From a virus, in IMG/VR virus record IMGVR_UViG_3300020182_000023, positions 14,697-78,696 of that record: 64,000 nucleotides of DNA, one strand, 5' to 3'. Numbering within the stretch: position 1 is the first letter of the stretch; every line of letters begins with the position of its first letter. The position numbers were made by a program, and so were the translations under genes. The notes beneath the pieces are model-generated. The model worked only from the letters and a program-made list of their open reading frames with translations. It was not told the origin of the DNA and did no database searches. This document shows positions 359-64,000 of the stretch, one piece after another.

Positions 359-3300
359 TTAAATAAAGCTTTTAATATATCTTAATGTAGAGCTAAATAC
401 TTTTACTAACGATGTAGCTGTATTATTGATTTTAGCAATGAAGTATGTGCCTATCATTAAGTCCCCTTGTGTAATAGGATTTGTTATGCCGCCAACAAGA
501 GGCGTATTCTCATCCATTAGTATGTTAGCCCATTGCCTTCCTTCTTTTTCCTCGAAATCTCCGTTGATTAAGCTAGTGCTTTGTCCTCTTTCGTTTGTTC
601 CGCTGTCCAAGTAGAAGTTAGTGTCTGTTGATTCTATCTCTAATGCCCTAGCGTTCTTTGTGTTAGTAGGCTCTGCGGCAAAAGGAATGGTGATATATGA
701 TTCGTGTTGAGCACCGTAAAAGTTTCCATAAGAGGAAACATTAGGGCTGTTATGTAAATAGAATTTGCCATCTTTACTAGAGCATAATCTACTTCTCGCA
801 CTACCGAATACATCGCCTTTGTAATCAAAGAAAGACATCCATTTATTATTCTTGGGGGAGTAATTAAGAACGTATTGCTGTCCTTGTATTACCTCTACGT
901 CAACAGCGGGATTGTATGTCCCCGAACTAGTTACGGTTGCTTGTATTGTAGTTCCACCGCCAAGCTTAGACCAATCTCCACTACTTACTGTTTCTGTTAC
1001 GAATGGCGCTGCTGTAAATGTTTTTAATACTATATCTTCACTTAGGTCAAGTTCCGTTACCTGTGCTTCTGTAAGCGTTATTACTACTGTTGTAGGTGGT
1101 GTGGTTACAACTGTTCCCGTTGATGTTGACTTATTGTTTATTGATAATATAAACGTATCAAACTCTTTATCGTAAACGCTTTGTATTACGGGTTTATTGA
1201 TTAACCTTTGAGAGCGTATAAGAACTTCATCAAAAAAGAATCTCATTCCAGCATCACTAATAGGTTTCACTTCTAATCCACTTGATATTAGTACTGTGTT
1301 TTTGCTTCTATCTACAAACATTGATGCTCCGCCAAAATAGGAAAGGCTCTCTGGATTGTCTGATATACCATAATCTGATACAGAATATCTAGGAGTTCCG
1401 AATACATCAGTAGTTTTGCCTACGAAATTATTACCGTCTAATGAGTTTATTTCCGTTCTACCCATTGGTAAAAGCCCCATCTTTCTGTCGAATAATACTT
1501 TTAGATATTCGTTTTCAGAAAATATCTTTCTTATAGTTCCGTATTCGTTCTTTAGTTCCCTAAAGTTTATATCGTAAAAGAAGCCTAATCCGTTTATGTT
1601 AGTGTTTTGTACTAACGGGTCGCTCCATCTTAATGTTGTTTTTAATTCTGGAAGCCTACTATCCTCTAATGCGACTAATGGTCTTTTTAAGCTAATAGAC
1701 CTAGAAGGCACTCTAATATCAGCGAACGGTACTTGTAGGAAAAATGCACCACCTACCGCAGTTCTCCCGCCAGATGGTATAGTTTTACTAGGAGGAAAGT
1801 TGTTAGCGTCATAATCTAAGAATGTGTAGCTTAAATACATATCACCTGTATCAGCGGGTTCATATACTAAATCCGCAGGGGGTGATATTACTTGGTTTTG
1901 GCTTGGTGCGTTAGGGTCGCCAAAACCCGAAAGGGTAGTTATTAATGAATCCAATCCTAAATGGGCTAAATCCCCATTAGCATCATACCCAATCTTACAA
2001 GGATACCCGTACTCTCTCCATAATGCGTTATTTGAATCTGTGCTTTTTTTGTAAACCTCTAAAATGTCTCTGACAGTTGGCTGTGTATTCCATTGACCGC
2101 TATTTATCTTAATATATTTCTTAAAGTTCATTTTATCCACAACAACAGATGCACCAGAACCGTCCCCCTCTACTATAAGCGTAGGAAATGAAGTATATCC
2201 ATTTCCCGAATTAGTTATAGTTACTGTTATTATTGAACCAGAGCCTATTGCAGTTGTAAAAGTCGCCCCACTACCACCTCCGCCAACAGCTTTTATTGTT
2301 GGGTTTGCAGTAAAGCCACTACCTCCGCTAATTATGGTAACGGATGCTATTTCTCCAGAGTCTAGCGTTTCAATAACCTTTGATTCATCGTAATGCGCCC
2401 AATAAGAAGATGCCGAGAAGTCGTAAACCCCTCTTACATAATATTCATCATTAAAGCTAAGAGGGAATTGGCTATCTTCGTTGTCATTATTAAATGTTCT
2501 TGGTATTTGTAGGCTTATTAATGACTGTCCGCCCGATGCTGCTGGCGTATCAACACCCGCCATAAATTGATAGGCTAAAGGTGTACTTCCCTCATAATCA
2601 ATCCCTATTGGTAAGTAACATGGTTGCCAAGTTTTAGCCCAAGATGGCGGTGCGTGACTTATTCTCATATTTAGGCTTACTATTACACTAGGGCTAGTTA
2701 CTATCGAATCGTACCAATCCGTCTCTACTTCTTGGTCAATATTCGTTAATACTGTAGAAAGCCTTCCCTTACCATCCGAGTATCTTATACCCCATTTGTA
2801 TTTAGCACCAGTTTTTAGTGTTTTTTGGTAACTCGCAGAAGGGGCTGTAGGTCTAGGTGCATAATATCTGTAAGATGAAATCATATCTAAATCTACGCTA
2901 CTAACATCTAGCCCCTCATCTATATCTCCAAATACTATTCTATTATCTTCTGTTATTGCTAATGTACCCGCTTTTTTAGGCACAAAAGAATATAGCTGAT
3001 TAGCCTCATTTTGGTCTAACGGAACTTTAGCTGAATTATTGTCGAATATTACTTCGTAGAATGACTCATATTGAACTCCACCACCCGTTACACCCCAATT
3101 ATCAGATGCTGTATTGAACTTTGTAAATGTATATTCGTTTGATGCGCTAATATCAGAGCCGTCTATATCAGCAAACTTATACCAATCTCCAGAGTTTCCA
3201 TTTCTACAATCTCTATACGCTACCTCTATCTTTTTTAATCTGTTTACTATTGCTGAATTTCTATACACCCTAAGTCTTAAACCGCCGTAAGATGTTGTTG

Positions 3301-4177
3301 GGTCTGCTAATACATTCTTGTTATAAGTATTCATTTCTGATATAGGCGACCAAGCACCATACATATCATCGTCAAATACCCATCTGTACTTAAACTGAAA
3401 ATACTTACCAAAAAGTGAGTTATTGCTTGTCCCAGTATTAGCCCCATTTATCAATATCTGATGTAATGGCTGTAACGGGCATAAATCAAAATACTCTGCT
3501 TGTAATGCAGTAGGGTATTCAGACCCAATTAATTTATCTACGTTAATATATTTAGGCTCGTTATGATTGTCAGTCCAAAACAATAACGTTTGACCATCTC
3601 TTATTAATATAGCTGAATCTATGTAATTATTCTCTTGAAAGTTTAAATAGTTGCCTATCTCCTTCCAAATTAATGAGTTTTTTTCGGGGTCTTTTTCTCC
3701 TGCATAACTAGCGGATGTAAACCCAACTAAACAAATATAATATTTAGTCTCTGAAGATATACCGCCAATTCTTAATACTACATCACCAGCGGTGTAAGAT
3801 GTTGCGTATGTAGGTGTAGCCCCGCCTAATGTACCTACTATTGAGTAAAAGTTATCTCTAACTAATTCTCTAAGAGTTTCATCTAAATAGCTATAATAAA
3901 GAATTATATGCTTCCCTTCGCTACTCCATAGGAATATATAAGTTCTTTGGTTTTCTTCGTCATCTTGTATCTTAACGCATTTATATCTACCACCAGACGG
4001 TAATGTATAACTTACTTCAAGTGTACTCTTTACATTTTCTAAGGCGTTATCATTCCCCCCATCAGTACTTGATACATAAAAGTTCTTAGCCTCTATGTAC
4101 TCACCTTCTTTTAGGTATCTAGGGTCGGAATCTTGGTTCATTCCAAGATAAAAAAAACGTCTATCTTCTTGTACCAT
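359..4177 (-). CDS. Tail stabilisation/muzzle protein, crAss-like podovirus type
   Basis: 1272 aa; N-terminal GMNQDSDPRYLKEGEY..A.N and LFWTDNHNEPKYIN, FKYRWVFDD..Y..WSP, YGISDNPES motifs typical of this family; follows the ring genes. Confidence 0.75.
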   Translation of the reverse strand: MVQEDRRFFYLGMNQDSDPRYLKEGEYIEAKNFYVSSTDGGNDNALENVKSTLEVSYTLPSGGRYKCVKIQDDEENQRTYIFLWSSEGKHIILYYSYLDETLRELVRDNFYSIVGTLGGATPTYATSYTAGDVVLRIGGISSETKYYICLVGFTSASYAGEKDPEKNSLIWKEIGNYLNFQENNYIDSAILIRDGQTLLFWTDNHNEPKYINVDKLIGSEYPTALQAEYFDLCPLQPLHQILINGANTGTSNNSLFGKYFQFKYRWVFDDDMYGAWSPISEMNTYNKNVLADPTTSYGGLRLRVYRNSAIVNRLKKIEVAYRDCRNGNSGDWYKFADIDGSDISASNEYTFTKFNTASDNWGVTGGGVQYESFYEVIFDNNSAKVPLDQNEANQLYSFVPKKAGTLAITEDNRIVFGDIDEGLDVSSVDLDMISSYRYYAPRPTAPSASYQKTLKTGAKYKWGIRYSDGKGRLSTVLTNIDQEVETDWYDSIVTSPSVIVSLNMRISHAPPSWAKTWQPCYLPIGIDYEGSTPLAYQFMAGVDTPAASGGQSLISLQIPRTFNNDNEDSQFPLSFNDEYYVRGVYDFSASSYWAHYDESKVIETLDSGEIASVTIISGGSGFTANPTIKAVGGGGSGATFTTAIGSGSIITVTITNSGNGYTSFPTLIVEGDGSGASVVVDKMNFKKYIKINSGQWNTQPTVRDILEVYKKSTDSNNALWREYGYPCKIGYDANGDLAHLGLDSLITTLSGFGDPNAPSQNQVISPPADLVYEPADTGDMYLSYTFLDYDANNFPPSKTIPSGGRTAVGGAFFLQVPFADIRVPSRSISLKRPLVALEDSRLPELKTTLRWSDPLVQNTNINGLGFFYDINFRELKNEYGTIRKIFSENEYLKVLFDRKMGLLPMGRTEINSLDGNNFVGKTTDVFGTPRYSVSDYGISDNPESLSYFGGASMFVDRSKNTVLISSGLEVKPISDAGMRFFFDEVLIRSQRLINKPVIQSVYDKEFDTFILSINNKSTSTGTVVTTPPTTVVITLTEAQVTELDLSEDIVLKTFTAAPFVTETVSSGDWSKLGGGTTIQATVTSSGTYNPAVDVEVIQGQQYVLNYSPKNNKWMSFFDYKGDVFGSARSRLCSSKDGKFYLHNSPNVSSYGNFYGAQHESYITIPFAAEPTNTKNARALEIESTDTNFYLDSGTNERGQSTSLINGDFEEKEGRQWANILMDENTPLVGGITNPITQGDLMIGTYFIAKINNTATSLVKVFSSTLRYIKSFI

Positions 4178-4941
4178 TAGCTTTTAGTAAATGCGCTGCT
4201 CTTTCTAGTCTGATTCATCATTTGGTTTTGCGTCATTGAACTGAATCTTTCAGCCATATGATAGCAAGCCCAAGTGAACTTATGCTCTAAATCTTGTATA
4301 ACACCTCTTGGTGTGCTTTTTCTTCTTCTCTTACTAAACAATTCTATACCCGCCTTAATAGGCTCCCTCATAAACTGATGAACTAGAAACTCTCCGTTTA
4401 TTGTAGATATATCTTGAAGGTATATTATCATATACTTGTCAGTAGTGTTTAAGCCTCCATTTACGTTGATAAATCCTCTTTCGTAGTCTATACTCCACTC
4501 ACCATAAACAACGTGTCCATTGCTACCGAAATTGCCTCCTAAGTTCTCTCCGTGTCTGCTTACAGATAGGCTGTTGTTTGAATCTCCGTAACCGTTTGAT
4601 TCAGCTAACCTTCCCGTAGAGGTTTGTCTTTCTGTATTGCCTTCACTATCAGTTCCTCTTGCGTTGGCGATTTTATTACCCAACCCTAATGAAATGAAGT
4701 GGTTTGCGCTATTTACAATTCCTAAGTCTATAATTCTTACGCAACCCGCAGGAATTACTATTTGGTCGTTAGAGTTTAACGTAACAAACTTACTTACAGG
4801 TATGCCCGTAAAATCATACTCCATCTCCCTTAATGCTTGTATGGCAAAGTCTAGGTAAAAAGATAAATCGTGTGTAGTCTTTTTGCCTTGCTCTCTAAGG
4901 TAGTCTTTTACTATGGATAATATGGGTAAGTCTCTATTCAT
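4177..4941 (-). CDS. Putative tail ring/adaptor protein
   Basis: 254 aa; position next to muzzle; size matches crAss-like ring proteins. Confidence 0.55.
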   Translation of the reverse strand: MNRDLPILSIVKDYLREQGKKTTHDLSFYLDFAIQALREMEYDFTGIPVSKFVTLNSNDQIVIPAGCVRIIDLGIVNSANHFISLGLGNKIANARGTDSEGNTERQTSTGRLAESNGYGDSNNSLSVSRHGENLGGNFGSNGHVVYGEWSIDYERGFINVNGGLNTTDKYMIIYLQDISTINGEFLVHQFMREPIKAGIELFSKRRRKSTPRGVIQDLEHKFTWACYHMAERFSSMTQNQMMNQTRKSSAFTKS

Positions 4942-5561
4942 TATGAATCTGCTAGGTTGTTATCGCTTAAATCTTCTGGAATGTCTTTTGTCAATACATA
5001 TTCTTGAACAGCCATATTAATTATATCCAACTCTAGGTTAGGCGGAAATGGAAAATAATCATCATCCGCTATATCTTCGCTGCTAGATATTGAGTGTACA
5101 TCTAATAATGTTTCTTCTGTCTGTTTTGCTGTAAAGTATATTCTATCTCCACTTAACCAATATCCCGTATTACCTTCTAACTCTTTTGAGGCAGAACCAT
5201 TAAATAAAGAATTAAATGTAGATGGCACTTGGTAGTATTCAAATGTGTTATTACAAGGTGTTATCTGATATATACCCATATTCTTAGGGAGTACTAACGG
5301 CTTAAATGGTAGCTGTAAATACCATCTGTTAGTTCTAGTGTCTTTTGTAGGGGATAATTGCTCATAAGTAGATATACAGCCTTCCCAAACCATATCTTCC
5401 ATTAAGTCATTACTCCACGCTTGCCAAGCGAAATCTGCAACAACTTTATCTCTAGCATTACCAACAGCAGCTACCATTTCCCTAAGAGATGTCTTAGCGT
5501 CTTGCGTTAGCTTTGGGTAAAGCTTCTTTAATGCTCTATATGCTAAATCTACTTTTGTCAT
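4941..5561 (-). CDS. Putative tail ring protein
   Basis: 206 aa; C-terminal FPFPPNLELDIINMAV pattern of ring/tail tubular proteins; translationally coupled. Confidence 0.55.
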   Translation of the reverse strand: MTKVDLAYRALKKLYPKLTQDAKTSLREMVAAVGNARDKVVADFAWQAWSNDLMEDMVWEGCISTYEQLSPTKDTRTNRWYLQLPFKPLVLPKNMGIYQITPCNNTFEYYQVPSTFNSLFNGSASKELEGNTGYWLSGDRIYFTAKQTEETLLDVHSISSSEDIADDDYFPFPPNLELDIINMAVQEYVLTKDIPEDLSDNNLADS

Positions 5562-6196
5562 TATTTGTAATTAACTAACGCTTCGTTTCCTATTGAGAAA
5601 CCAAAACGTCTAACTATACCTTGTACTATTCTTTCTGTATGCTGCTCTGGTATATCAAAATCAACCGATGTAGACGAATCGTACACTTCTCTACTAGATG
5701 ATACCGTGAAGCCCCAAATAGGGTCTAATGGAAGTCTGTAATAGCTGAGCTTAACGCTACTAAATACAGAGTAAGGTTTAATTTCTACCGTATCTGCATT
5801 AATAACTGCTATTGGATATGCTGTACTTGCTCTTGAGAAACCGCTAACTTCCGATGCGTCTGCTTCTGACTGACCCATCACTTGAAATTGAACTAGCTTA
5901 CTCTGTGTTTGATTAATGTAAACTCTACCCGTTATTGATTGCAATTGCATATAATCACTAGGCTTAGTTACTAAGTTGCTTGAGTTCGGAAAAAGATTAA
6001 CTGACACCTTTAATTCATCAGCTATGTCCATTGTTTGCTGTGAACTTTCAGACACACCTAGCACTTCATTATAAAAAGAAAGTTGTTCTAGCTTTGCGTA
6101 GTTATTAAAGTCGCTTGTCTTTATATAGCCTCCTGACTGATTCTTCTTTATAATCTCAAAGACTTGCGTCTTTACGGTATTTATATTTGCTCCCAA
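5561..6196 (-). CDS. Putative tail ring (tubular) protein
   Basis: 211 aa; KNQSGGYI...FN, YYRLP.DP.W and SVDFDIPE motifs of crAss-like ring proteins. Confidence 0.6.
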   Translation of the reverse strand: MGANINTVKTQVFEIIKKNQSGGYIKTSDFNNYAKLEQLSFYNEVLGVSESSQQTMDIADELKVSVNLFPNSSNLVTKPSDYMQLQSITGRVYINQTQSKLVQFQVMGQSEADASEVSGFSRASTAYPIAVINADTVEIKPYSVFSSVKLSYYRLPLDPIWGFTVSSSREVYDSSTSVDFDIPEQHTERIVQGIVRRFGFSIGNEALVNYK

Positions 6197-6199
6197 TTT

Positions 6200-6946
6200 C
6201 TATTGATTATCGCCACTTGTTGATACGACTGAAAATTGATTCTCGTCTGTGCATATTAATTCTATAACATCAAATTCGCTTAATGTAAGTGAAGCTCCAT
6301 TAAGAGTTCTAAGTATTTGTCCGTTTGCGCCAAATTTAGCAGGGTCTAAGTCTAGTGTAGCACCCACTCCAACATAGAATAATAATCTAGTCGCTACTGC
6401 GCATTTATTAATTTGAACTATCTCACCCGTTCCGTCTACAAAATATGTATTACCATTCTTAGCGTTTAATACTGAATCACCCGTAGTAGGGTTAATATCA
6501 GTAGCTATATTATTGTATTGACCATATAGCTGTAATGCTACGTTCTCTGATTTAGGAATAGCTGCTGATTGAAGCCCTATGAATACAGAATCAGTTGCGG
6601 ATGTCTTTGGTGATAAAACCCCTCCCGAATTATTCCAATAAGCACTATCTAATAATTCACTTCTAATCTGTGTTGCTGTATCTGAAATTTCACTTCTTAT
6701 TTGAGTTAATGAATCATTAGCCGCATACCCGTCATTTATAAAATACCTGCCATCAGCAGTAGAGTCTATTATAAACAAACTCCCATAAGCTCCGTACATT
6801 GATTCTCCGCTTAAAAACATCGTATCTCCATACGCAATCTTCTTAACTTTAAAGGGCTGATTCTTAGTTACCCAATTAATAGTGTCTTGCGAATATCCTG
6901 CTAAGCAAAACGCAGTAAGTATAAATAATATTACTATCTTTTTCAT
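6200..6946 (-). CDS. Signal-peptide-bearing protein inside the virion module
   Basis: MKKIVILFILTAFCLAGYS|QDT; short coiled repeat (DSLTQIRSEI/DTATQIRSEL); fibre-like C-terminus. Confidence 0.5.
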   Translation of the reverse strand: MKKIVILFILTAFCLAGYSQDTINWVTKNQPFKVKKIAYGDTMFLSGESMYGAYGSLFIIDSTADGRYFINDGYAANDSLTQIRSEISDTATQIRSELLDSAYWNNSGGVLSPKTSATDSVFIGLQSAAIPKSENVALQLYGQYNNIATDINPTTGDSVLNAKNGNTYFVDGTGEIVQINKCAVATRLLFYVGVGATLDLDPAKFGANGQILRTLNGASLTLSEFDVIELICTDENQFSVVSTSGDNQ

Positions 6947-6949
6947 TTC

Positions 6950-8164
6950 TTATGGTTTAATTATGTGATAAGCTACCTTTACTCCCGTATATACAATTGT
7001 TCCGAAAGTAATTTCTCCCGTTAAGGAATTTAAACTTATGCTGTATGTGCTAATTGATTCTACGTCATCTCCATCTACGGTTATGATTACATCTCCATCT
7101 GCATAGTTGTAGTTTATAAGTTCTGTGAATGTATAGCTAGTAACGTCTGCCGTCATTGTAGCTGAACCCATTCTTACTATTGCAGGGGTTGTTCCTATAC
7201 CTACTACTTGAGATACTGTTCCTGAACTACCGCAATCTCCCGTACAACTTAATAAGTCTTTTATTTCAGAGGTATAAGCCGCTGCATCCGATGATTTACC
7301 GCAGTTATATGCGCTTTGTATCAGTTGCCATAGATTAGAAGTTCTATTAAATAACTTCGTTAATCTAGCTTCATCTGTCTTATTGCCCGTATTTATAGCT
7401 GCATCTAGTTGCTGCTCTAATGCTTTCATACAACAATAAAGGTCGCAACCATCACTTCCACCGCTTACATAGATACCCTTATATCCCGTTACAGCATCTA
7501 GTAGTGTCCAAGTAACATCCGTAGAAGTTGCGTCTGTGTAATACCCGTTAAATGTATATGTAGCATTTGCTGACAAGGCTACTACCGAAGTAATATCAGG
7601 GTCAGTTGAATAGTAAAATACTTTTGTGTTTAATGTCTTTGTAGAACTATCAATGTTAGTTACATAAGAACCTAGACCTTGTGGGTGCGTAAGTGTTAAT
7701 GTACCCGCTATTGTAGGGTCTACTGAATTATAAGCGTAACTTGTTTCGTCTACTGCTTTAAAGAAAATAGGGTTTATTACGCTATAACTAAGGTCTAAAT
7801 CAGCCGTTGGTGAAGAATAAGTGTTATCAAACTGAAATGTTCTTTCAAATTTAACCAAAGGTGCTGCTACATCGAAATACGTTAGCGTTATTTGATAAGA
7901 ACCTCTAACAACTAATGAATCAGCATCTTTTGGTAGGTTTAGCGTATCGCTAGAGCCACCCGATGTCATATTAGGGTTAGATGTGTCTGTGTTATTATAA
8001 AATGTAGTTCCTTGTGGGTCTACTATCTTAACAAGTATTCTTGAATCTCCCGAAGCCCAACTTAAATCACCAGAACCATAAGTAGATGTATCTGTAAGTG
8101 TTACGTTTTTGGCTGCGATAGACTCACCTGTTGTGAATGTTATGTCTGTTGATTGAGTTGCCAT
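6950..8164 (-). CDS. Virion structural protein (beta-rich, Cys cluster)
   Basis: 404 aa, T/S/D-rich, CDLYCC and C.G.C motifs, within the structural operon. Confidence 0.5.
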   Translation of the reverse strand: MATQSTDITFTTGESIAAKNVTLTDTSTYGSGDLSWASGDSRILVKIVDPQGTTFYNNTDTSNPNMTSGGSSDTLNLPKDADSLVVRGSYQITLTYFDVAAPLVKFERTFQFDNTYSSPTADLDLSYSVINPIFFKAVDETSYAYNSVDPTIAGTLTLTHPQGLGSYVTNIDSSTKTLNTKVFYYSTDPDITSVVALSANATYTFNGYYTDATSTDVTWTLLDAVTGYKGIYVSGGSDGCDLYCCMKALEQQLDAAINTGNKTDEARLTKLFNRTSNLWQLIQSAYNCGKSSDAAAYTSEIKDLLSCTGDCGSSGTVSQVVGIGTTPAIVRMGSATMTADVTSYTFTELINYNYADGDVIITVDGDDVESISTYSISLNSLTGEITFGTIVYTGVKVAYHIIKP

Positions 8165-8193
8165 TAGTTATAATTTGTTAAATACAAAGATAC

Positions 8194-8226
8194 AAAAAAG
8201 GTGGGAACTGATATGAACCCACCTTT
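8194..8226 (-). terminator. Intrinsic terminator hairpin
   Basis: aaaggtggg...cccaccttt stem with a minus-strand U tract, after ORF 8255..9376. Confidence 0.6.
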
Positions 8227-8254
8227 AATATAAATTATATGTTTAAATTACTGA

Positions 8255-9376: not shown

Positions 9377-9431
9377 AATACTTTATTAAATTAAAATTTG
9401 TAAATACAAAATTAAACAATTTTTAACAAAC

Positions 9432-9464
9432 AAAAAAAGCCCCAATGTTTCCATCAGGGCTTTT
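9432..9464 (-). terminator. Intrinsic terminator after MCP
   Basis: aaaagccc...gggctttt hairpin with A/U tracts. Confidence 0.6.
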
Positions 9465-9486
9465 AATAGTTTATATAAGGTTAATT

Positions 9487-10899: not shown

Positions 10900-10922
10900 T
10901 TTTATTGTTTAAAAAAATTGTT

Positions 10923-12089: not shown

Positions 12090-12110
12090 AATAAATTAAA
12101 TTGATATATA

Positions 12111-12118
12111 CAAAATTA
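12111..12118 (-). promoter_or_regulatory. Bacteroidota -7 box (TAATTTTG) for scaffold/MCP
   Basis: TAnnTTTG consensus about 21 nt upstream of the ATG. Confidence 0.55.
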
Positions 12119-12139
12119 ATAAGATTTTTTAACAAAAAC

Positions 12140-25029: not shown

Positions 25030-25030
25030 C

Positions 25031-50033: not shown

Positions 50034-50034
50034 T

Positions 50035-51935: not shown

Positions 51936-51955
51936 ATTACAAAATTAATCATTTA

Positions 51956-54298: not shown

Positions 54299-54519
54299 TA
54301 TAAAGTGTTGTTATATCGTTTGACTAAATCATTAGTTTCTTGTTGTTGGCTTTCAATCTTGCTTTTAAATTGCAATAATGTTTCTCGCGCTCTTTCCTTT
54401 TCGGATTCTTTTAAGTTGGAAAAATCAAAAGAGTTAATAGCTTCATTCATTATTGCAGTCCCCTCAGTTACTACTTTGCTTAGATTTTTTGATAGTTCTT
54501 TTAATTTTCTTTCGTTCAT
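54298..54519 (-). CDS. Hypothetical protein
   Basis: 73 aa coupled ORF. Confidence 0.5.
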   Translation of the reverse strand: MNERKLKELSKNLSKVVTEGTAIMNEAINSFDFSNLKESEKERARETLLQFKSKIESQQQETNDLVKRYNNTL

Positions 54520-56384: not shown

Positions 56385-58843
56385 TATCCGTTAAGTCTTG
56401 GTCTGCGTTTAGCGGCTCTTAATACCTTTCTCAGTCCTCTTCTATGCTCTTCTTTGCTAATGTTTCCGTTAGGGTCTATGTTCAAATGAAATTGAATACC
56501 CTCAACCGCTGTTGTAACTTTCTCCAGGCCGCTTACAATGTTTTGATCGTTAAGACTTGCAACCGATACGCCCCCTTGATTGTTTAATGCTAAGTCAACT
56601 AAATCTTTATTTGATATATTGCCTAACTTGTTTCTAATTCTCAAAGAATCTTTATGGCCTAATATTCTTTCTTCTTGTGTTACAGCTACTAAAGTATTAT
56701 CAAAACCGTTACCTTTTAAATTGGCTTTAGCGTCGTCGCCTACTCTATCCGTTCCTTCGTAGAAACTTCCAGCTACTATGTTAATCGCTGCTTGTGCTGC
56801 TAACGCCTTCCCGACGGCCTCTATTGGATTGCCGCCTTCTTTTAATGCTGCTAGTACTGACTCATAAAATACTTGTCTTTTTTGGCGTTTCTCTTGCTTT
56901 TCCGCTAGTTCTTGCTGTTCTAGTTCTATTTCAGCTTGTTTCTTTTGGCTTTCCGCTAAAGTGTTGTCAAGACCTTGAGCTGCTAGTTGTGCTTGTATTT
57001 CAATATTTTGAGTAGTTCGTTCAGCTTTCCTTTCTAGCTTTTCTTGTTCTTGGTCGTCTGCCCTATCTCTTGCTTCACCAACTTGGCCTAATACGTTTTC
57101 AACTTGGCCTATTTGTTCTTTTCTTAGTGCTTCCTTGTCTTTGGCTAATTGTTCTGCAATCTTACGTTGTTTATCAGCCGCTTTTAAATCAGCGTCTATC
57201 TGGTCTTGTGCTGCTTTTTCAGCGGCCTTTTTAGCTTCTTCGTCTGCTTTTTTCTTGGCCTTCGCTCTCTCTTGGTCTGCTTTTGCCATAGCCTTTGATG
57301 CTTCGTCAAAATCAAGTCTAAATGGGTCGTCCTCTACGTTTTCTTCTTGAAGTAAGCTATCTCTAACTTTTTTAGCATCCGCAGCAGCTGCCTTTTCTAA
57401 AGCTAATTTAGCTTTTGCTAAAGCAATTTCTTCTCTATTTAAAGTATTTCTATTTATTAAAGCCTCGCTTCTAAACCCTTCGTTTTCTTCTTGTATGTCT
57501 GCTATCTCAAATTCAACCCTCTTAACCTCTTTTTGTAGTTCTAAATTATCTTTATCGGCAAATAATAGTATTCCCAAGTTTTTAAGTCTTTTTTCCTGAA
57601 ACTCAACTTGTTCTTTTTCTCGCTTATTGATAACGGTTAATAGTTTTTCATTTGCAGCCCTTCGCTCGTCAATACTTAAAGTTTCGTCATCCCTGATTTG
57701 TCTTAATTTCTCAGAGTCTTGCAGTTGTTTTTTTGCAACTCGGTCCGACTCAATTTCAATAACTTCAAGTTCAGCTAAAGCATTTTGAGCGGCTGAAACA
57801 CCCGTAGCACTCATCGAAGTCTCAATACCAAAAAGGCCAATACTTAACGCAGTTGCTAAATCTGATAACACACCACCACCTTTTCCGTCTGCTCCTAACA
57901 ATTTAGCAAACTTATTACCAGCGGTATTAAAAGCACTTCCTAGTGTATTTGTTGCTGTTGCTAAATCATAACTTCCAGCCGTTGAAGTTGCATAAAGTCC
58001 AGCTAAAGCAGTAAGACCAGCAGTTACAGCACCGACTGGAGTTGTTAACTGTCCTAAACTTATCCCAAACAAATTAGTGCTTTCTATGCTTTGTCCGATT
58101 CCGTCTTTGTAATTACCTACATTTCTTTGAAAGTTACCGATTGAAGCGTCGTTATCTTTTACTTGTTTATCAAGTTTTTTTAACTCTGTAAGTAACTTGC
58201 CGCCTACGTCTACATTTTCTCTTTCTGCTTCGGTTAGGTTACGATAAGCCGCCTTTAGCTGTCCTAGTCTTTGGGCTTGTGCATTAAATGAACTTTCAGC
58301 TTCTTGACCTTGTTTGACTTGCGCTTTAATTGCAAACCCTAACTTTGAATTTGCTACTGTTAGTTGTGCAATCTCTTTATTATTCTTAGTTGTTGCTCGG
58401 TTGTATTTAGATAGACTTATTTGCCCTCTTTGATATTCTTTATTTAAAAGGTTTTGACGCTTTTTAATGTCAGCTAATAAAGTTTTGTTTTGGGTTTGTC
58501 TGGCTATGTTAGCGTCTAAACTACCGTTAACGTCGTCAATTATCTTTTTGACTTTCTTTTGATTCTCAATTGAGTTTTCAACCTCTTTATTAAATTGCTC
58601 GGTAGCTTCGTCAGCGTCCTTTTGCGCCATTTCAAACGCCTTAACATTGGTTGTGGTTTGGCTTACTACGTCATTGTATTTCTTAATGTCGTCACCACTA
58701 TTAAAGGCTTGTGTTTTGCTTATGTCTTTTAAAGTGGTTAGGTTTTCTTCTAGTACTTTCCTTAATGCAGCAGCGGCCTTTATAACCGTAGCAAATAGAT
58801 TCGGGTCAAAAACTTCTTCGCTGGTTATCTTCTTATTTGCCAT
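56384..58843 (-). CDS. Tape measure protein
   Basis: 819 aa, A/K/E/Q-rich coiled coil, GNFQRNVGNY motif, central hydrophobic segment. Confidence 0.8.
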   Translation of the reverse strand: MANKKITSEEVFDPNLFATVIKAAAALRKVLEENLTTLKDISKTQAFNSGDDIKKYNDVVSQTTTNVKAFEMAQKDADEATEQFNKEVENSIENQKKVKKIIDDVNGSLDANIARQTQNKTLLADIKKRQNLLNKEYQRGQISLSKYNRATTKNNKEIAQLTVANSKLGFAIKAQVKQGQEAESSFNAQAQRLGQLKAAYRNLTEAERENVDVGGKLLTELKKLDKQVKDNDASIGNFQRNVGNYKDGIGQSIESTNLFGISLGQLTTPVGAVTAGLTALAGLYATSTAGSYDLATATNTLGSAFNTAGNKFAKLLGADGKGGGVLSDLATALSIGLFGIETSMSATGVSAAQNALAELEVIEIESDRVAKKQLQDSEKLRQIRDDETLSIDERRAANEKLLTVINKREKEQVEFQEKRLKNLGILLFADKDNLELQKEVKRVEFEIADIQEENEGFRSEALINRNTLNREEIALAKAKLALEKAAAADAKKVRDSLLQEENVEDDPFRLDFDEASKAMAKADQERAKAKKKADEEAKKAAEKAAQDQIDADLKAADKQRKIAEQLAKDKEALRKEQIGQVENVLGQVGEARDRADDQEQEKLERKAERTTQNIEIQAQLAAQGLDNTLAESQKKQAEIELEQQELAEKQEKRQKRQVFYESVLAALKEGGNPIEAVGKALAAQAAINIVAGSFYEGTDRVGDDAKANLKGNGFDNTLVAVTQEERILGHKDSLRIRNKLGNISNKDLVDLALNNQGGVSVASLNDQNIVSGLEKVTTAVEGIQFHLNIDPNGNISKEEHRRGLRKVLRAAKRRPRLNG

Positions 58844-59273
58844 TCTTCAACATATTAAAGTGCGTGAAATACATTCGGACGCTCAACTTCTTATCGTCAA
58901 TTGCAAAATTAAGGTTTTTAGTTAACAAAGCGATTGACTTATAATAGTCGTATTCGCTGTTCTCCATTGCCTTTTTACGCTTCTCGCCTTCAAAAATGAT
59001 TTTATCATAGGCTAAAGAACTGATTTGCGCCTTAACTTTTTTGATCTGAAACCGAATGTCGTCTTTAAGTGTATCAATGTAGTTTGGGTCTTTTGAAAGC
59101 ATATCAAAGTATTCAAGTTCGATTTTATCCCATACCGGATTAAGTACCTTTTTTAAATGGTCCACGTCTATTTTGCTAGGCATTTCATAGACTAGGTGTT
59201 TAAGGTCGCCCGTTTCTAAAACTTTGTAATAATAGTAAATAGGTAAATCGTCAATCGACTGCCAGTATTTCAT
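58833..59273 (-). CDS. Putative tail assembly chaperone
   Basis: Y.SIDDLPIY.Y.K..ETGDL..L; immediately upstream of tape measure. Confidence 0.45.
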   Translation of the reverse strand: MKYWQSIDDLPIYYYYKVLETGDLKHLVYEMPSKIDVDHLKKVLNPVWDKIELEYFDMLSKDPNYIDTLKDDIRFQIKKVKAQISSLAYDKIIFEGEKRKKAMENSEYDYYKSIALLTKNLNFAIDDKKLSVRMYFTHFNMLKNGK

Positions 59274-59685
59274 TGAGTATAATTTCTTGAATTTGTGGTA
59301 ATAACTTGTCTCTTAATATTTCAAAACTTTCTTCATTCAAACCTAAGATAGCCCCGTATTCGCTCAAATCTACGTCCTCTTTAACTGAATCAGCGTAAAT
59401 AGTTAAGTCTTTCTCGGTTACTTGTACAATATCAAAACTATCGTAAAAGTCGCCAGTATCTTTTAACGTCCACCTTTTGCCGCTTGGTTTACCGTAAACG
59501 TCAACACTGGTTTTAGAGTAAAATGGAAGTTCTTTATCGTCTGCTAAAATACCAAATTGCAACTGGTTTTCCTGGTTCAACTGAATGATTAACTTCTGGT
59601 TGATCGTTTCGGAAAACAAAACAAAGAATAGTTTACCAGTAGCAAGGCTTTCAATGTTTCTTATTACTTGGAAAAGTCTATCCAT
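59251..59685 (-). CDS. Putative neck/tail completion protein
   Basis: QL..GI, YS..S...YGK, TLKDTGDFYDSF, YG.ILGL. Confidence 0.5.
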   Translation of the reverse strand: MDRLFQVIRNIESLATGKLFFVLFSETINQKLIIQLNQENQLQFGILADDKELPFYSKTSVDVYGKPSGKRWTLKDTGDFYDSFDIVQVTEKDLTIYADSVKEDVDLSEYGAILGLNEESFEILRDKLLPQIQEIILNEILAVD

Positions 59686-59948
59686 TACACACTAAAGAAA
59701 TAACCGTCCGTTGCTAATTGGTCCACATACTCCTCAATGTTTGTTGAAAATAAAACTTCGTCTATTTCTGAATAAAGAACTATTAACGGTTCTTGGTACT
59801 CAGATGCTCTATTAGTGTACGTTATAACCATTTGCGGTGCCGCTAAATTAGGTTGTGCAATAATAACCGCAATAGGAAAAGTATAAATAAACTGAACCCC
59901 ATTGCCTGACTTAGTTACTCCGTTTATCAATTCAAGTGAAAAACTCAT
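59685..59948 (-). CDS. Hypothetical protein
   Basis: 87 aa ORF. Confidence 0.5.
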   Translation of the reverse strand: MSFSLELINGVTKSGNGVQFIYTFPIAVIIAQPNLAAPQMVITYTNRASEYQEPLIVLYSEIDEVLFSTNIEEYVDQLATDGYFFSV

Positions 59949-59960
59949 AGTTTAAAGTAT

Positions 59961-59993
59961 AAAAAAGCCCCAATAGCGTAAACTATTGAGGCT
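59961..59993 (-). terminator. Intrinsic terminator
   Basis: aaaaaagccccaatag-cgtaaa-ctattgaggct. Confidence 0.65.
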
Positions 59994-60023
59994 AATTAAA
60001 TAAATGTTTAACCTTTAATTAAT

Positions 60024-60188
60024 TTACTTCTTTTTACTAGCGTCTTGGTAATCCTTCCAAGCATTAGTCAAATCTCCTGTAAATCCAGAATCATAAAGAA
60101 AACGATTGAACTTTGTTTTATCGCCTTTCTTACGACTATACAACCCTAATTTAAGGTAACAAGTACCCGTTTTTGTTTTGAACTCCAT
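60024..60188 (-). CDS. 54-aa protein after the major tail gene
   Basis: MEFKTKTGTCYLKLGLYSRKKGDK...KKK, hand-translated. Confidence 0.45.
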   Translation of the reverse strand: MEFKTKTGTCYLKLGLYSRKKGDKTKFNRFLYDSGFTGDLTNAWKDYQDASKKK

Positions 60189-60189
60189 A

Positions 60190-61119
60190 CTATGGGACGA
60201 TTGTTATTTCAACAGCACTTAATAAAGTATCGTCATATCCTTTAGTAGTAGGTGCTATTCTTAGACTTAAAACGTCGGCAACAGTTTGCGCTGAAAATGT
60301 AAAAGCGTATGTTCCTGTTGGAGTTTCGTTAAAGGTAGAAATTACAACAGGAGAACCAGTAGTTACATTGTAAATTTCAAAGTCACCAATTACTAAACCA
60401 CCAGCAACAACCGGATTAACTACTGAGCCGTAAGGTGTTGTTACTTTCATTGAGAACGCAGTAGGCGAAATTGCAGAAGCAACACCGTTTAAGTTAATCA
60501 AACCGTTGTAGTCTAACCAAGAAGTTGAACTATCAAAGTCAGAAGCTAACAACATACCAACGTCAGAATCAGCGATTGAATCTTTCCATTGAAAAGTTAA
60601 GGAAATTTTAGCAACAGTTGAATCTGTTGTGTCGATTGTCTTAACGTCCCAAGTAGGCATTTTGATAGCCAAAGGATAAAGATAACCAGTAGTTTTTTTG
60701 TCACCTATCAAGTTGTCGTTACCGTCAACGATATAAGCCCCAACTTGACCACAACCGAAAGCGTCAATCGCTCCAGCATAAGTAGAACCTTGAAACCAAA
60801 TCTCCCCTGTGAAAGTCTTTGCTCCGTTTCTAATTTTTGCAATCGTTCCTGAAGGTGCTTCTTCTGTAATAGAATCAGCTCTTTCATTGGTTACGTTTTC
60901 CATTGTCGGCAATGGGTAGTAACGCTCCGAAGAATCAGCAGCATTAATTAGGTCAATAATTTGAGCGTTAGTAGGTATTGAACTAAGGTCAATCCCATTT
61001 CTAACATTTGAACCGTTCACCAAAGGAACGATTATAATCTTTTTTGCAACAGCTTGTAAGGGTTGGCACGAACCAACTCCGGTATTACTAAGCGTTACGT
61101 CACATGAACAAACAGCCAT
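60190..61119 (-). CDS. Major tail (tube) protein
   Basis: 309 aa; C.C...L.NTG...C N-terminus seen in Flavobacteria siphovirus tail proteins; own promoter box at 61152-61159. Confidence 0.65.
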   Translation of the reverse strand: MAVCSCDVTLSNTGVGSCQPLQAVAKKIIIVPLVNGSNVRNGIDLSSIPTNAQIIDLINAADSSERYYPLPTMENVTNERADSITEEAPSGTIAKIRNGAKTFTGEIWFQGSTYAGAIDAFGCGQVGAYIVDGNDNLIGDKKTTGYLYPLAIKMPTWDVKTIDTTDSTVAKISLTFQWKDSIADSDVGMLLASDFDSSTSWLDYNGLINLNGVASAISPTAFSMKVTTPYGSVVNPVVAGGLVIGDFEIYNVTTGSPVVISTFNETPTGTYAFTFSAQTVADVLSLRIAPTTKGYDDTLLSAVEITIVP

Positions 61120-61172
61120 TTTTTTATTTTTTAGAGTTAAACATTATTTTACAAAATTACAATTTTTTTTGC

Positions 61173-61922
61173 CTATTTAAAACCACGATCAAATCCAGTA
61201 TCAAAACCGTTCCCGTCGACTACTGGAATTTCACGAACTCGGCAAGTAAAGTCTTTGATTATGTTTAGTGGAACGGTTACTTCAACAGCACTTATGTTTT
61301 TGTTGAATACTTTTTGACCAGCGTCGTTAGTTGTTGAATTGCCCCCATTGGTGAACTTGGAATAGTTTATTCTAGTGACTCCGTTAATAGTGTTAACCCT
61401 ATTTGATCGGGCTAAAGCAGTTAAAAAGGTATCAGCTAAAGCGTTCAAAGGATTTAAAACATTATCGTAGTCGCTTTCTGTGGTGTATTTTTTCGGGTTA
61501 TTTGTAGCCATAAAGAAGAAACGGCTCGAACCTTCGCTTTCATTTACACTATCTCTTGCAGTTGGTGAAGTTCTCGAAGCTAAATCAAACCGCCAAATCA
61601 TTGGTAGAATGTCTTTGTCGTGCTTCTTTGATATTTCTTGTTGAACCTGGAGATACTTACCGTAAATGTATTGAGGCTTTCTAAGCGCATACGTTCCGAT
61701 AATTGGCGCACTTGCACCGCTTACTATTAGATAGGTGTTTTGAACGAAAGAAACAACCGTATAATTAACTTCTAATAGCGTTATAATACTGTTTTCTCCT
61801 AAGTAGTGGGTATTGGTAGCCCAAAGTTTATAGTTACCGTCTATAACTTCAACAGCATAAACGTTAAGGTCTAAACTCATTGAGTCGATTACCGATTCTA
61901 CTATGCTATCTACGCTGGTCAT
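61173..61922 (-). CDS. Putative tail terminator/neck protein
   Basis: 249 aa between adaptor and major tail; ends GFDTGFDRGF. Confidence 0.45.
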   Translation of the reverse strand: MTSVDSIVESVIDSMSLDLNVYAVEVIDGNYKLWATNTHYLGENSIITLLEVNYTVVSFVQNTYLIVSGASAPIIGTYALRKPQYIYGKYLQVQQEISKKHDKDILPMIWRFDLASRTSPTARDSVNESEGSSRFFFMATNNPKKYTTESDYDNVLNPLNALADTFLTALARSNRVNTINGVTRINYSKFTNGGNSTTNDAGQKVFNKNISAVEVTVPLNIIKDFTCRVREIPVVDGNGFDTGFDRGFK

Positions 61923-62428
61923 ATTGCGCTAATAGGTTCTAAAACTAATCCCCTAAAGTCTGTATAAGTTGCTTGGTTCTCGTAAATGTAATATTGTAAG
62001 TCCGTTCCGGTTCTTATGGTCCGATTATAAAGAACGGTCAATTTAGTAATTAAACTTTCTTGACTTGTTGCCTCTGATTGATTAGCTACGTTTCCAGACG
62101 CTTGGTTTATTATTTGTTGTTGACTTACATAGTTGTAATATATTCGGCCTTTTAAGTACTCCTTAATCCCTTGACAAGTGATTGATATATCGCAAGGGTC
62201 GTCATAGTAAAACGGGCTGAATATATCTGTCCACTTTGTTGAAGCTGGTGTTTGAGGGTCGCCAGTCAAATCATTTATAAACTCTTGGCCCAACGTAGAA
62301 CCGAACAACTCATAAATTAAAGCCTTCTCGCTATCCAAAGTAATAAACGCTTGAAGGTCAACTACTGTATTTTGGTCTTGGCTTATTTGAAATATACCGC
62401 TTTCAAAATCGGACGTTTGAAGTATCAT
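61919..62428 (-). CDS. Putative head-tail adaptor
   Basis: 169 aa shortly after MCP; LFG..L...F, GIKEYL...IYY. Confidence 0.5.
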   Translation of the reverse strand: MILQTSDFESGIFQISQDQNTVVDLQAFITLDSEKALIYELFGSTLGQEFINDLTGDPQTPASTKWTDIFSPFYYDDPCDISITCQGIKEYLKGRIYYNYVSQQQIINQASGNVANQSEATSQESLITKLTVLYNRTIRTGTDLQYYIYENQATYTDFRGLVLEPISAI

Positions 62429-62601
62429 AATATTTTAACGATTACATTATTTGGGTTACTCACTAGCCTAGTGACTGCATAGTTTAGAATCTTTTTTTTA
62501 GTGCCTTTCTTGATAGTCTTTAAAATTGGAGTGCCTTTATCGTCAACCGTTCTATATTCATAGTCTTTTAAAAACTCGACTAAGATCATTTCTTCTTGCA
62601 T
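62425..62601 (-). CDS. 58-aa protein
   Basis: MQEEMILVEFLKDYEY..., coupled to the adaptor start. Confidence 0.45.
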   Translation of the reverse strand: MQEEMILVEFLKDYEYRTVDDKGTPILKTIKKGTKKKILNYAVTRLVSNPNNVIVKIL

Positions 62602-62686
62602 AATACAAAGTTAAATAAAAAAGCCCTAACAAATTAATGCTAGGACTTTTCCCAGAGAAACTTAATACAGAGAATATTAAGAGAAT

Positions 62687-62878
62687 TTATTTTTTACTTG
62701 ATTTCGCTTTTGCTGGTGCTTTCTTTTTTTCTGTTGCTAACTCAGCCTGCCCGTTACTAATAACTAAATCAGCTTTCCATTTAGGTAGCTCGTAAACTTG
62801 ACCAACTACAAAATGTTGATTCTTTCCAGCTTTTACTTTTTTACCTCTTACCTTGATTATTTCAACTTCTGAACTCAT
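62687..62878 (-). CDS. Small basic post-capsid protein
   Basis: 63 aa; G..YEL....A..VI..G.AE plus K-rich tail. Confidence 0.55.
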   Translation of the reverse strand: MSSEVEIIKVRGKKVKAGKNQHFVVGQVYELPKWKADLVISNGQAELATEKKKAPAKAKSSKK

Positions 62879-62910
62879 AACTGTTTAATTTTATGTTGCC
62901 TCAAAGATAT

Positions 62911-62943
62911 AAAAAAAGCCCCAACAATATGAAGGGGCTTTTT
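62911..62943 (-). terminator. Intrinsic terminator after MCP 2
   Basis: aaaaaaagcccc...ggggcttttt. Confidence 0.7.
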
Positions 62944-62962
62944 AACTATATTCTAAACTAGA

Positions 62963-64000
62963 CTATGCAGTTTCTAAAGCTGCTTTGTCAGCTGCAAATG
63001 AACCTTTTACAAATGCAGTTCTATCGTTATTCTTAACGTAAACTACACCTCTCCATTCAGCTCTAATTGTCTTAAAGTTCTTAATGAAGTTGTCACCCGT
63101 ATATCCAACGTCGATTGATACACCAGACTTAGTTCTGATATGTGCTTTTGTAAAGTCACCAATCAAATATTGACCAGCGTCAACTAGAGTAGTTTCTACA
63201 ATTGGAACTCCGTCTAAAGATAAAGAACCAGCTACCATTGCTAAACGCTCAACATATCTTTTATCCGTAGAACTAACTTTTACCATTTTTAAAGTGGTAA
63301 CGTCAGAAGGATTCATAAAGATATAATTCGGCATTCCTTGTTCAGCTATCTTGATCTGATTTGCTGCTACTGTAAGAACGTCTACTTCATTAGCGTTATC
63401 AACTGCTAAAGCAAATGTTCCAGCTGCAAATGATGTTGCGGTAGTGAATACTCCATTCAATTGTGGGCTTGTTCCAGAACCACCATAAGCACCAGTTTCA
63501 ACAGCTTTCAATAACTCACGATTCAACTCATTGTTAATTTCAGTAGCCATAAACTCTACGTCGTCTAACATTTCGTCTGTAATCGTAATATAAGCAGTTG
63601 TCTTTTCAACTTTTTGAGAACCTACTAGTAAATCAAAATCAATTTGATTTTTAAGTGCTGCCTCCGCTGTTTGTCCAGCTGTTCCTTCTTTTCCACTTTG
63701 ATAAACCCATTCAACAAGGTTAGAAGAGATAGTTCCAGATTGAAGAACCTCTAGGAATCTTACTTCCCTTGAAGCAACCATATTCATTCCCGGTAGCCTT
63801 TCAGCTTGTGGAATTTGTCCCGTTACATTACCAGCGATAGACATATCACCAACAGCTTTAAGCGTAATCTTAACGCTTTCACCATTCTTGTAACGACTTA
63901 ATTCTTCTTTCTTTTCCTTTAATTGCTCGAGGATAGACTTACTTTGAGAACTTTCTGTTTTAGTCAACTTTTCAACCGCTGACTTAATAGCAGCACCTTG
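62963..64000 (-). CDS. Major capsid protein 2, HK97 family (N-terminus beyond window)
   Basis: TAE...K.Q.DF, K.TAYI.ITDEMLDD, G.GT..QL.G, MNP.D, L.GVP.V, GDF, FIKN..TIRAE.R, AFVKG. Confidence 0.9.
   Translation of the reverse strand, partial: QGAAIKSAVEKLTKTESSQSKSILEQLKEKKEELSRYKNGESVKITLKAVGDMSIAGNVTGQIPQAERLPGMNMVASREVRFLEVLQSGTISSNLVEWVYQSGKEGTAGQTAEAALKNQIDFDLLVGSQKVEKTTAYITITDEMLDDVEFMATEINNELNRELLKAVETGAYGGSGTSPQLNGVFTTATSFAAGTFALAVDNANEVDVLTVAANQIKIAEQGMPNYIFMNPSDVTTLKMVKVSSTDKRYVERLAMVAGSLSLDGVPIVETTLVDAGQYLIGDFTKAHIRTKSGVSIDVGYTGDNFIKNFKTIRAEWRGVVYVKNNDRTAFVKGSFAADKAALETA

Follow-up and report, generated by a model that had tools for sequence, protein, structure and literature searches.

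Do two sets of virion genes found on one viral contig belong to one genome or to two? The question is raised by a 78,696-bp contig. The window analyzed here is its right-hand 64 kb; window position 1 is contig position 14,697, and all positions below are those of the window unless given as contig positions. From the sequence alone, the original prediction had placed a podoviral and a siphoviral set of virion genes in the window, both on the minus strand, and both were found on that strand at the predicted places. It had favored an assembly chimera through shared fibre genes, and had also raised the possibility of a genuine genome encoding two kinds of virion.

Direct repeat and the two halves of the contig

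Self-BLAST of the contig detected a 1108-bp direct repeat (98.3% identity), with one copy, R1, at contig positions 1612-2718 and the other, R2, at 48874-49981 (minus strand) in the window. The differences between the two copies are all at the edges, and exact-match blocks define a core at 49056-49861, whose 806 bp are identical in both copies. The direct repeat is the only DNA common to both halves of the contig. It splits the contig into a 60.9-kb arc, which carries the genes for the terminase large subunit (TerL), the portal and the first major capsid protein (MCP1), a replication arm and lysis genes, and a 15.6-kb remainder that reaches both contig ends. We refer to the parts divided by the repeat as P, for the podovirus, and S, for a 16.7-kb siphovirus fragment. 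Within the window, P covers 1-48873, with its structural arm on the minus strand, its replication arm on the plus strand, and the lysis genes; S covers 49982-64000, on the minus strand, with siphoviral tail genes and a cut capsid gene. The podoviral virion gene set runs on to the left of the window, as far as contig position 2719. Among GenBank phages, no near-identical DNA was found for 1-20000, and the sole match to 49000-64000 was an 80-bp DUF285 stretch of Campylobacter phages. A scan of the junction region for promoters and terminators added nothing.

P is a full podovirus genome of about 62 kb with a circular map, consisting of contig positions 2719-63569 and one repeat copy. The P genes listed in this paragraph are all on the minus strand. 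TerL (14733-16796; phrog_6681, E 3e-69) and the portal (12140-14677; phrog_6547, E 8e-84) are 25% and 27% identical to gp090 and gp091 of phage phi38:1, respectively. MCP1, of 470 aa (9487-10899; phrog_13704), is a homologue of phi38:1 gp093 and of the Calle MCP. A large virion protein of 1272 aa (359-4177; phrog_14478, E 9e-59) is the counterpart of phi38:1 gp097 (tblastn E 1e-21), and a GroES-like protein encoded upstream of TerL (17106-17939; phrog_3188) has the position of phi38:1 gp089. An endolysin (46522-46977; phrog_465, E 3e-28) and an endonuclease (46956-47378; phrog_945, E 4e-47) are encoded near the repeat. The first gene after the P repeat copy encodes a 240-aa lectin-like protein (47848-48570; Laminin_G_3, PF13385, E 2e-6), and sequence related to it follows a P-type fibre in G002/L026.

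The original prediction had called the virion gene set at 359-17109, with its capsid gene at 9487-10899, crAss-like. The set and the capsid fold are present. An AlphaFold model of MCP1 from a 75-sequence alignment (pLDDT 64, pTM 0.62) has an HK97-type capsid fold. Its best match in a Foldseek search was Vibrio phage VP1 (9in6, E 4e-18), and it matched the phicrAss001 MCP (7qof_A/B) with E 4e-14 to 9e-14 and a TM of about 0.5 over about 490 columns. From this model, which is of moderate quality, MCP1 is predicted to have an HK97 fold of the crAss001/VP1 type; in the crAss001 fold, beta-rich domains are added to the HK97 core. Sequence searches of the PDB with MCP1, portal and TerL gave no matches, crAss001 chains included, so that the term crAss-like would hold for P at the level of the fold only. 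A 2135-aa ORF in the structural arm (contig 6044-12451), for which the giant virion RNA polymerase of Crassvirales was considered, had no PHROG or PDB sequence match.

S is part of a siphovirus of about 33 kb. Its genes in the window, too, are on the minus strand. Its major capsid protein, MCP2 (62963-64000), is of HK97 type (HK97 gp5 in the PDB, E 5e-20) and 44% identical to the MCP of the Flavobacterium siphophages snusmum/hattifnatt. Only residues 80-424 are encoded: the contig ends inside the gene, which lacks the first 79 codons. The tail genes include those for a 144-aa tail protein (59251-59685; phrog_6195, E 7e-16) and a 327-aa minor tail protein (50035-51018; phrog_2824, phrog_26941 and phrog_8780). 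Pfam searches with eight S tail proteins gave nothing above threshold, and the probable tape measure protein (819 aa, 56384-58843) and the candidate tail tube protein (309 aa, 60190-61119) had no matches in Pfam, PHROGs or the PDB. These two were therefore assigned by position, with the tape measure gene in the same gene order as in snusmum; their matches to snusmum are weak (28% identity to gp63, tblastn E 4e-6, for the tape measure).

Genes for a siphoviral TerS, TerL, portal and protease are absent throughout the 78.7-kb contig. The siphoviral set is an incomplete morphogenesis module with its MCP cut and its head genes missing; the HK97-type MCP and the tail proteins of the original prediction are there, and the full module is not. 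The missing genes are found in relatives of S. L122 has a full 424-aa MCP, of which residues 80-424 alone match our contig, and carries TerS, TerL, portal and protease genes just upstream of it. L120 and L121, with about 99.9% nucleotide identity to S, extend 1.9-2.6 kb past the contig end. L127 and L128 are 95% identical to S, and the S-like contigs have lengths of 33-34 kb.

Repeat copies, independent contigs and sequencing depth

R1 encodes the C-terminus of a 755-aa fibre of P, and R2 encodes the C-terminal 361 aa of a 378-aa fibre, or receptor-binding protein, of S (48897-50033, minus strand). The cassette encoded by R2 has a DUF285 domain (DUF285/BspA-like; E 4e-58) and a PKD domain. The cassette follows unrelated N-terminal anchors, which measure 394 aa in the fibre of P and 17 aa in that of S. 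When the two copies were aligned with L007, an independent JGI metagenome contig of 13.9 kb, L007 followed R2 throughout the variable positions of the 5′ edge and R1 throughout those of the 3′ edge. A high-depth contig of public run X1 had the L007-type letters at 48994, 49050, 49052 and 49055. Each of R1 and R2 is a hybrid, reciprocal to the other, that changes between S and P inside the exact core.

L007 has the parental arrangement of S. It carries the 327-aa minor tail gene (100% amino acid identity), the 378-aa fibre gene (99.2%) and then the ORFs of contig positions 1611 to 1, five small ORFs at 100% amino acid identity, without P in between. It continues for 8.4 kb with HNH, exonuclease, NinG and helicase genes that are missing from our contig.

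For P, a 60,144-bp relative, G001, has a 126-bp terminal direct repeat, which closes its map. Its collinearity is confined to the P arc, at roughly 76-99% nucleotide identity over the aligned 56% of the arc; its MCP1 is 94% identical in amino acids, and its endonuclease is 100% identical in amino acids (99.3% in nucleotides). It joins the N-terminal region of the fibre gene (contig 3389) straight to the endonuclease gene (47400), which lies some 1 kb beyond the P fibre gene in this genome. G001 lacks MCP2, the repeat and any DNA of S. Likewise, MCP2 was absent from four other genomes with MCP1 homologues (59-69 kb, 98-100% complete), in a search in which the positive control, our own contig, was matched. 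The exact P junction (755-aa fibre, repeat, 240-aa gene) was not found, and G001 and G002 have other cassettes at this place. The hybrid junctions were found in no independent contig.

Depth was taken from Logan contigs in the public runs X1, X3, X7 and X8. X1 and X3 come from different studies, and both are flagged as possible source samples of the contig. In X1, the depth was 43-52 on the P side, 160-168 on the S side and 212.7 for the core contig; in X3, it was about 5-6.5, 13-15 and 18.9, respectively. In both runs, the depth of the core is close to the sum of the P and S flanks, and the two halves are 2.4- to 3-fold apart. The original prediction had named a coverage discontinuity as its decisive test, and one is present exactly at the repeat in X1 and X3, as a step at the repeat edges (48.9-49.8 kb). 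The P-specific (47564-48933) and S-specific (49832-55832) contigs end or begin within 31 bases of stretches shared by both copies. The endolysin gene is on the low-depth (P) side in both runs, and the 240-aa lectin-like gene has the P level in X1 (47.9). As the Logan contigs are broken within the repeat, the flanks of the 806-bp core are linked by no read or contig, from either side.

All four runs examined, which are marine, contained both P-like and S-like sequences. Runs X7 and X8, of low share (about 0.5), had been expected to contain just one half; instead, each had diverged phages of both the P-like and the S-like kind, and the repeat core was not found there at ≥95%. The ratio of P to S was about 0.3-0.4 in X1, X3 and X7 and about 2.4 in X8.

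Origin of the contig

We conclude that the 78.7-kb contig is very probably an assembly chimera of two independent, co-occurring marine phages of flavobacterial type, joined via the 806-bp stretch that is identical in their fibre genes. The reading favored in the original prediction is upheld by several observations: a repeat is shared, the coverage steps at it, both of its copies are hybrids, S occurs in its parental arrangement and not joined to P, a P-type genome closes without S, and S is truncated. The path of the assembler would have led from the S tail genes into the shared core and out on the P side, then once round the entire P genome, back into the core from the P fibre, and out on the S side. 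The product would be a complete P genome with a repeat copy on each side, inside a 16.7-kb piece of S. We infer that the joining took place in silico rather than inside a cell.

The same arrangement could come from a real co-integrate of the Campbell type, formed by a single crossover in the 806-bp core in a co-infected host of flavobacterial type, where circular or concatemeric P DNA recombines with S and a minority of S::P molecules exists beside free S. One homologous crossover does yield a whole circular genome between direct repeats inside another genome. Co-infection and recombination are physically possible, given the co-presence of P-like and S-like phages in all four runs, and the common receptor-binding cassette makes a shared host probable. 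The depth profile would be identical if real molecules formed a minority whose depth did not exceed that of P. However, the depth step means that at least two thirds of the S copies in X1 have no 1:1 link to P. P (62 kb) and a full S (about 33 kb) would together make about 95 kb, far above the sizes of their relatives (59-69 kb and 33-34 kb), and therefore neither capsid could plausibly package the co-integrate. Among the independent sequences, a hybrid junction occurs in none, whereas L007 shows the parental S junction and G001 is of P type, closed and free of S. We consider such a co-integrate improbable; if real, it would be a direct snapshot of module movement between phage morphotypes.

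Two readings that take the contig as one genome are far less probable still. A stable hybrid encoding both podoviral and siphoviral particles would account for the two sets on one contig and one strand, but it conflicts with the step in depth and with a truncated S, and we regard it as extremely unlikely. The siphoviral set lacks terminase, portal and protease genes, its MCP is cut at the contig end, independent contigs continue past either end of ours with the remaining S sequence, and complete relatives of P have no second capsid gene. Hardly any weight can be given to a single, very long module on a circular 79-kb genome, split by the ends of the window and with a 470-aa protein that has some role other than that of capsid protein. 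The structural genes are indeed all on the minus strand, and a circular contig would give a single run from TerL to the lysis genes. However, the contig has no terminal repeat, the MCP2 reading frame stays incomplete when the ends are joined, the model of the 470-aa protein is that of an HK97-fold capsid protein, and the independent contigs go beyond both ends into sequence missing from ours. We also considered S as a capsid-encoding satellite inside P. This was ruled out, as both contig ends cut S and the relatives of S are full phages with TerS, TerL, portal and protease.

An assembly chimera has consequences for the use of the record. It should not serve as a single genome and needs dividing at the repeat: contig 2719-63569 with a copy of the repeat belongs to P, and the pieces at the two ends belong to S. 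The IMG/VR figures for it (78.7 kb, estimated 74% completeness) are misleading. Receptor-binding cassettes of this kind can give rise to chimeric viral contigs.

The real biology is the receptor-binding cassette common to a podovirus and a siphovirus, a modest but useful result. Judging from sequence identity, the exchange of the cassette between P and S must be very recent because 806 bp are identical. P and S share a receptor-binding cassette and therefore probably share a host. For two phages with no other DNA in common, the 1.1-kb cassette and the co-presence in four marine runs point to the same host for both and to an exchange between morphotypes that is very recent. When IMG/VR was searched with the 378-aa fibre, the sole match was 60% identical, on a contig otherwise unlike ours. 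In run X8, a second cassette, made up of the 240-aa lectin-like body, was found behind the same S-type leader.

Comparison with known systems

P appears to be distantly similar, in gene order and sequence, to podoviruses of the phi38:1/Calle type (Pervagoviridae); it is unclassified and would be a distant relative at best. Among named phages, phi38:1 and Calle are the nearest to P by sequence. The Cellulophaga phages phi38:1, phi40:1 and Calle (Pervagoviridae, Callevirus) and the Flavobacterium elemo podophages have a gene order in common with P: GroES-like protein, TerL, portal, structural protein, MCP, several virion proteins and a virion protein of about 1300 aa. The core set of Pervagoviridae includes portal, cpn10/GroES and structural proteins (PMC8776804). 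P and phi38:1/Calle have homologous, collinear genes for the portal, TerL, the MCP, a 211-aa protein and the 1272-aa protein, with only 22-27% amino acid identity between the products, and P has no DNA similarity to this group. The genome sizes are in one range (60-73 kb), whereas P has no tRNA genes and phi38:1 has 16. Published models of MCP and TerL of the phi38:1/Calle family cluster with those of Crassvirales (PMC9855967).

The snusmum/hattifnatt phages (vB_FspS, Muminvirus) resemble S in genome size (33-39 kb) as well as in the MCP. They share with S the order of MCP, small head-tail genes, a protein of about 309 aa, two small ORFs, a tape-measure-like protein and large distal tail proteins. 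Beyond the MCP, the one match is a weak one to the tape measure, and the genes for the tail tip and the fibre are not related.

The shared cassette has a parallel in the mosaicism of tail fibres and receptor-binding proteins among phages of one host, where a C-terminal domain is swapped behind unrelated N-terminal anchors, as in P and S. Unlike that mosaicism, the exchange between P and S crosses morphotypes.

The contig as a whole is like the repeat-mediated chimeric contigs of short-read metagenomes, in which two genomes of unequal depth are joined via an exact repeat. As in such misassemblies, the depth of the repeat equals the sum of its flanks and a whole circular genome seems to be inserted between the copies. 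The likeness extends to a shared repeat that is probably longer than the insert size of the library. Unlike the usual repeats behind such misassemblies, the repeat here is not a transposon or an rRNA operon but a receptor-binding cassette of a podovirus and a siphovirus.

Virion gene sets of the podovirus and siphovirus parts

The window holds bases 14697-78696 of a single viral record of 78,696 bp (the contig, L001), which IMG/VR classes as linear with an estimated completeness of 74%. GC content was even (31-39%), and neither a terminal repeat nor tRNA genes were found in the contig. Both virion gene sets of the original prediction were present on the minus strand.

Set 1, in the podovirus part (P), runs leftwards from 17.9 kb and encodes a GroES-like protein, TerL (phrog_6681), the portal (phrog_6547), a 388-aa protein, a 470-aa protein (MCP1, window 9487-10899; phrog_13704, "virion structural protein"), several virion proteins and a 1272-aa protein. 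Beyond the window's left edge follow a fibre adhesin, a 2135-aa ORF and a 755-aa fibre. Cellulophaga phage phi38:1 (Pervagoviridae, 72.5 kb) has the same gene order, and its homologues of the P TerL, portal, 470-aa, 211-aa and 1272-aa proteins were 22-27% identical. The model of the 470-aa protein (75-sequence alignment) was an HK97-fold capsid protein (pLDDT 64), with Vibrio phage VP1 and the phicrAss001 MCP as best structural matches. A structural study placed models of the Pervagoviridae MCP and TerL beside Crassvirales (PMC9855967). No sequence-level match to crAss001 proteins was found. The earlier description of set 1 as crAss-like is therefore fair at the fold level only and does not extend to sequence.

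The 2135-aa ORF (contig 6044-12451), which had no PHROG match and no PDB sequence match, could by its size and position be a candidate crAss-type virion RNA polymerase or ejection protein. The N-terminal region of the 755-aa fibre (contig 3389-3811) carries imperfect tandem repeats of ~60-180 bp (76-94% identity), the number of which differs in the P-type record G001.

Set 2, in the siphovirus part (S), comprises an HK97-type capsid protein (MCP2, window 62963-64000), one tail protein, a candidate tape measure (819 aa), three large proteins of the distal tail, a minor tail protein and a fibre of 378 aa. MCP2 matched HK97 gp5 in PDB (E 5e-20) and was 44% identical to the MCP of Flavobacterium siphophages snusmum/hattifnatt. 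Its gene lies at the extreme contig end; IMG/VR contigs with 95-99.9% identity align to the contig's last base and then continue past it. In L122, a relative of S, the MCP gene has 424 codons, with TerS, TerL, methyltransferase, portal and protease genes upstream. The contig keeps only residues 80-424 of MCP2 and has none of these L122-type upstream genes.

The shared repeat and the probable parental genomes

Self-comparison of the whole contig identified one long repeat, in two direct copies that were 98.3% identical. Copy R1 (contig 1612-2718) encodes the C-terminal 361 codons of the 755-aa P fibre, and copy R2 (window 48874-49981) those of the 378-aa fibre, both with a DUF285 (BspA-like) plus PKD domain. 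The copies were exactly identical over the central 806 bp (window 49056-49861), with differences confined to the two edges. The repeat splits the contig into a 60.9-kb arc (contig 2719-63569), with TerL, portal, MCP1, a plus-strand replication arm, an endolysin and endonucleases, and a 15.6-kb remainder (window 49982-64000 and contig 1-1611) that reaches both contig ends.

When metagenomes were scanned with the 378-aa fibre, a 13.9-kb JGI contig (L007) was recovered. It encodes, in order, the final part of the 305-aa protein and the 327-aa protein, each at 100% aa identity, and the fibre at 99.2%; immediately past the fibre come the 122-, 112-, 147-, 107- and 96-aa ORFs found at contig 1611-1, all at 100% aa identity. 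In this independent assembly the S tail module thus adjoins the sequence of the other contig end, with no 61-kb P between them. The next 8.4 kb of L007 hold HNH, exonuclease, NinG and helicase genes that the contig lacks. Because the upstream parts of L122 and another S-like contig, L127, overlap the downstream part of L007, S closes at roughly 33 kb, in line with S-like contigs of 33-34 kb. In a three-way alignment, L007 matched a single copy at all variable sites of each edge: R2 along the 5′ edge and R1 along the 3′ edge. R1 and R2 are thus reciprocal S/P hybrids with the switch inside the exact core.

For P, one IMG/VR record, G001 (IMGVR_UViG_3300025632_000016; 60,144 bp), was matched by two queries, the N-terminal half of the P fibre and the endonuclease. 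An exact second copy of its initial 126 bp lies 3 bp from the other end, which closes the map. Collinearity of G001 was confined to the P arc, of which 56% aligned, at about 76-99% nt identity. In G001 the fibre N-terminal region (contig 3389) is followed directly by the endonuclease (window 47400). The record encodes MCP1 (94% aa identity) and lacks the repeat, S DNA and MCP2. Four more genomes that encode an MCP1 homologue (59-69 kb and 98-100% complete; one of the four with terminal repeats) likewise lacked MCP2, in a search whose positive control, the contig itself, was matched. Although IMG/VR lists G001 as linear and 60% complete, the record spans the entire P circle and is probably complete, its terminal repeat having gone unrecognized owing to the 3 extra bases. 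In G002, a P-type record of 53.5 kb, the middle part of a P-type fibre (92% nt) is joined to sequence like the 240-aa gene.

Read depth and the probable origin of the contig

A 10-kb query over the junction retrieved 20 public runs with at least part of it, and depth over window 39001-59000 was taken from the Logan contigs of four runs. Depth on the P side, on the S side and in the repeat core was 43-52, 160-168 and 212.7 in run X1, and 5-6.5, 13-15 and 18.9 in X3, from another study; both are possible source samples. Core depth in these two runs was thus close to the sum of the flanks, and the coverage discontinuity that had been named as a test for a chimera was seen at the repeat. Flank-specific contigs ended within 31 bases of stretches common to both copies (X1: 47564-48933 and 49832-55832). 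Diverged relatives gave about 190-230 (P) and about 660-950 (S) in X7, and about 18 and about 5-8 in X8, with the core uncovered in both; the P:S ratio varies between runs. The high-depth X1 contig had L007-type letters at 48994, 49050, 49052 and 49055, in keeping with S being the majority genome.

The repeat, the depth step, the L007 junction and G001 without S together support the earlier preference for an assembly chimera through shared fibre genes, and we consider it very probable that the contig is such a chimera of P and S. Its layout is S (small ORFs), repeat, P (whole genome), repeat, S (tail to truncated MCP). The assembler would have entered the circular P genome through the repeat common to S and exited by the same repeat. 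A transient co-integrate of P and S, formed by a single crossover, would have the same structure, and the Logan contigs, which break inside the repeat, do not phase the flanks across the 806-bp core. However, it would measure ~95 kb, far above the complete MCP1-homologue genomes (59-69 kb) or the S-like contigs, it could at most accompany free S as a minority, and neither hybrid junction was seen in an independent contig; we regard it as improbable. The depth step and the absence of the S head genes both contradict a stable genome for two virions. All explanations other than a chimera or a transient co-integrate are, taken jointly, even less probable.

Variation among relatives and the shared fibre cassette

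Relatives in X7 and X8 departed from the window in the P replication and lysis arm, where blocks were replaced or deleted (39270-39431, 41603, 42072-43750, 45702-46959 and 47391-47618); several of the break points lay near 39.4 kb. One relative skips 2171 bp (39431 to 41603), one has 698 bp in place of 1677 bp, and in one the HNH and endolysin block (45702-46959) is swapped for 1065 other bases. Another difference is a 226-bp deletion flanked by 29-bp direct repeats (47392-47420 and 47618-47646). Related HNH endonuclease genes, mutually 38-45% identical, occur in P (window 26582-27679, 37450-37983, 42066-42965 and 45824-46480) and in S (L007 5228-5761 and 7881-8201). These are probably mobile homing endonucleases passing among co-occurring phages.

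A high-depth X8 contig (94.6) joins window 47770-48530 to 49991-50373, combining the first ~14 codons of the 378-aa fibre ORF, 12 other bases and the body of the 240-aa lectin-like (Laminin_G_3) ORF, with DUF285 skipped. This looks like a third phage with the same short S-type leader and a different binding cassette. The 240-aa protein (window 47848-48570) was 28-35% identical to the segment preceding DUF285 in longer metagenome fibres (L011 1990-2697, L012 656-1330 and L010 5539-6180); the lectin-like domain thus exists in fused form as well as in a gene of its own.

P and S, found together in all four runs examined, differ in morphotype and have a receptor-binding cassette in common, with 806 identical bases and no other shared DNA. 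Such sharing is ordinary fibre mosaicism in kind, yet it is a clear and recent case across morphotypes.
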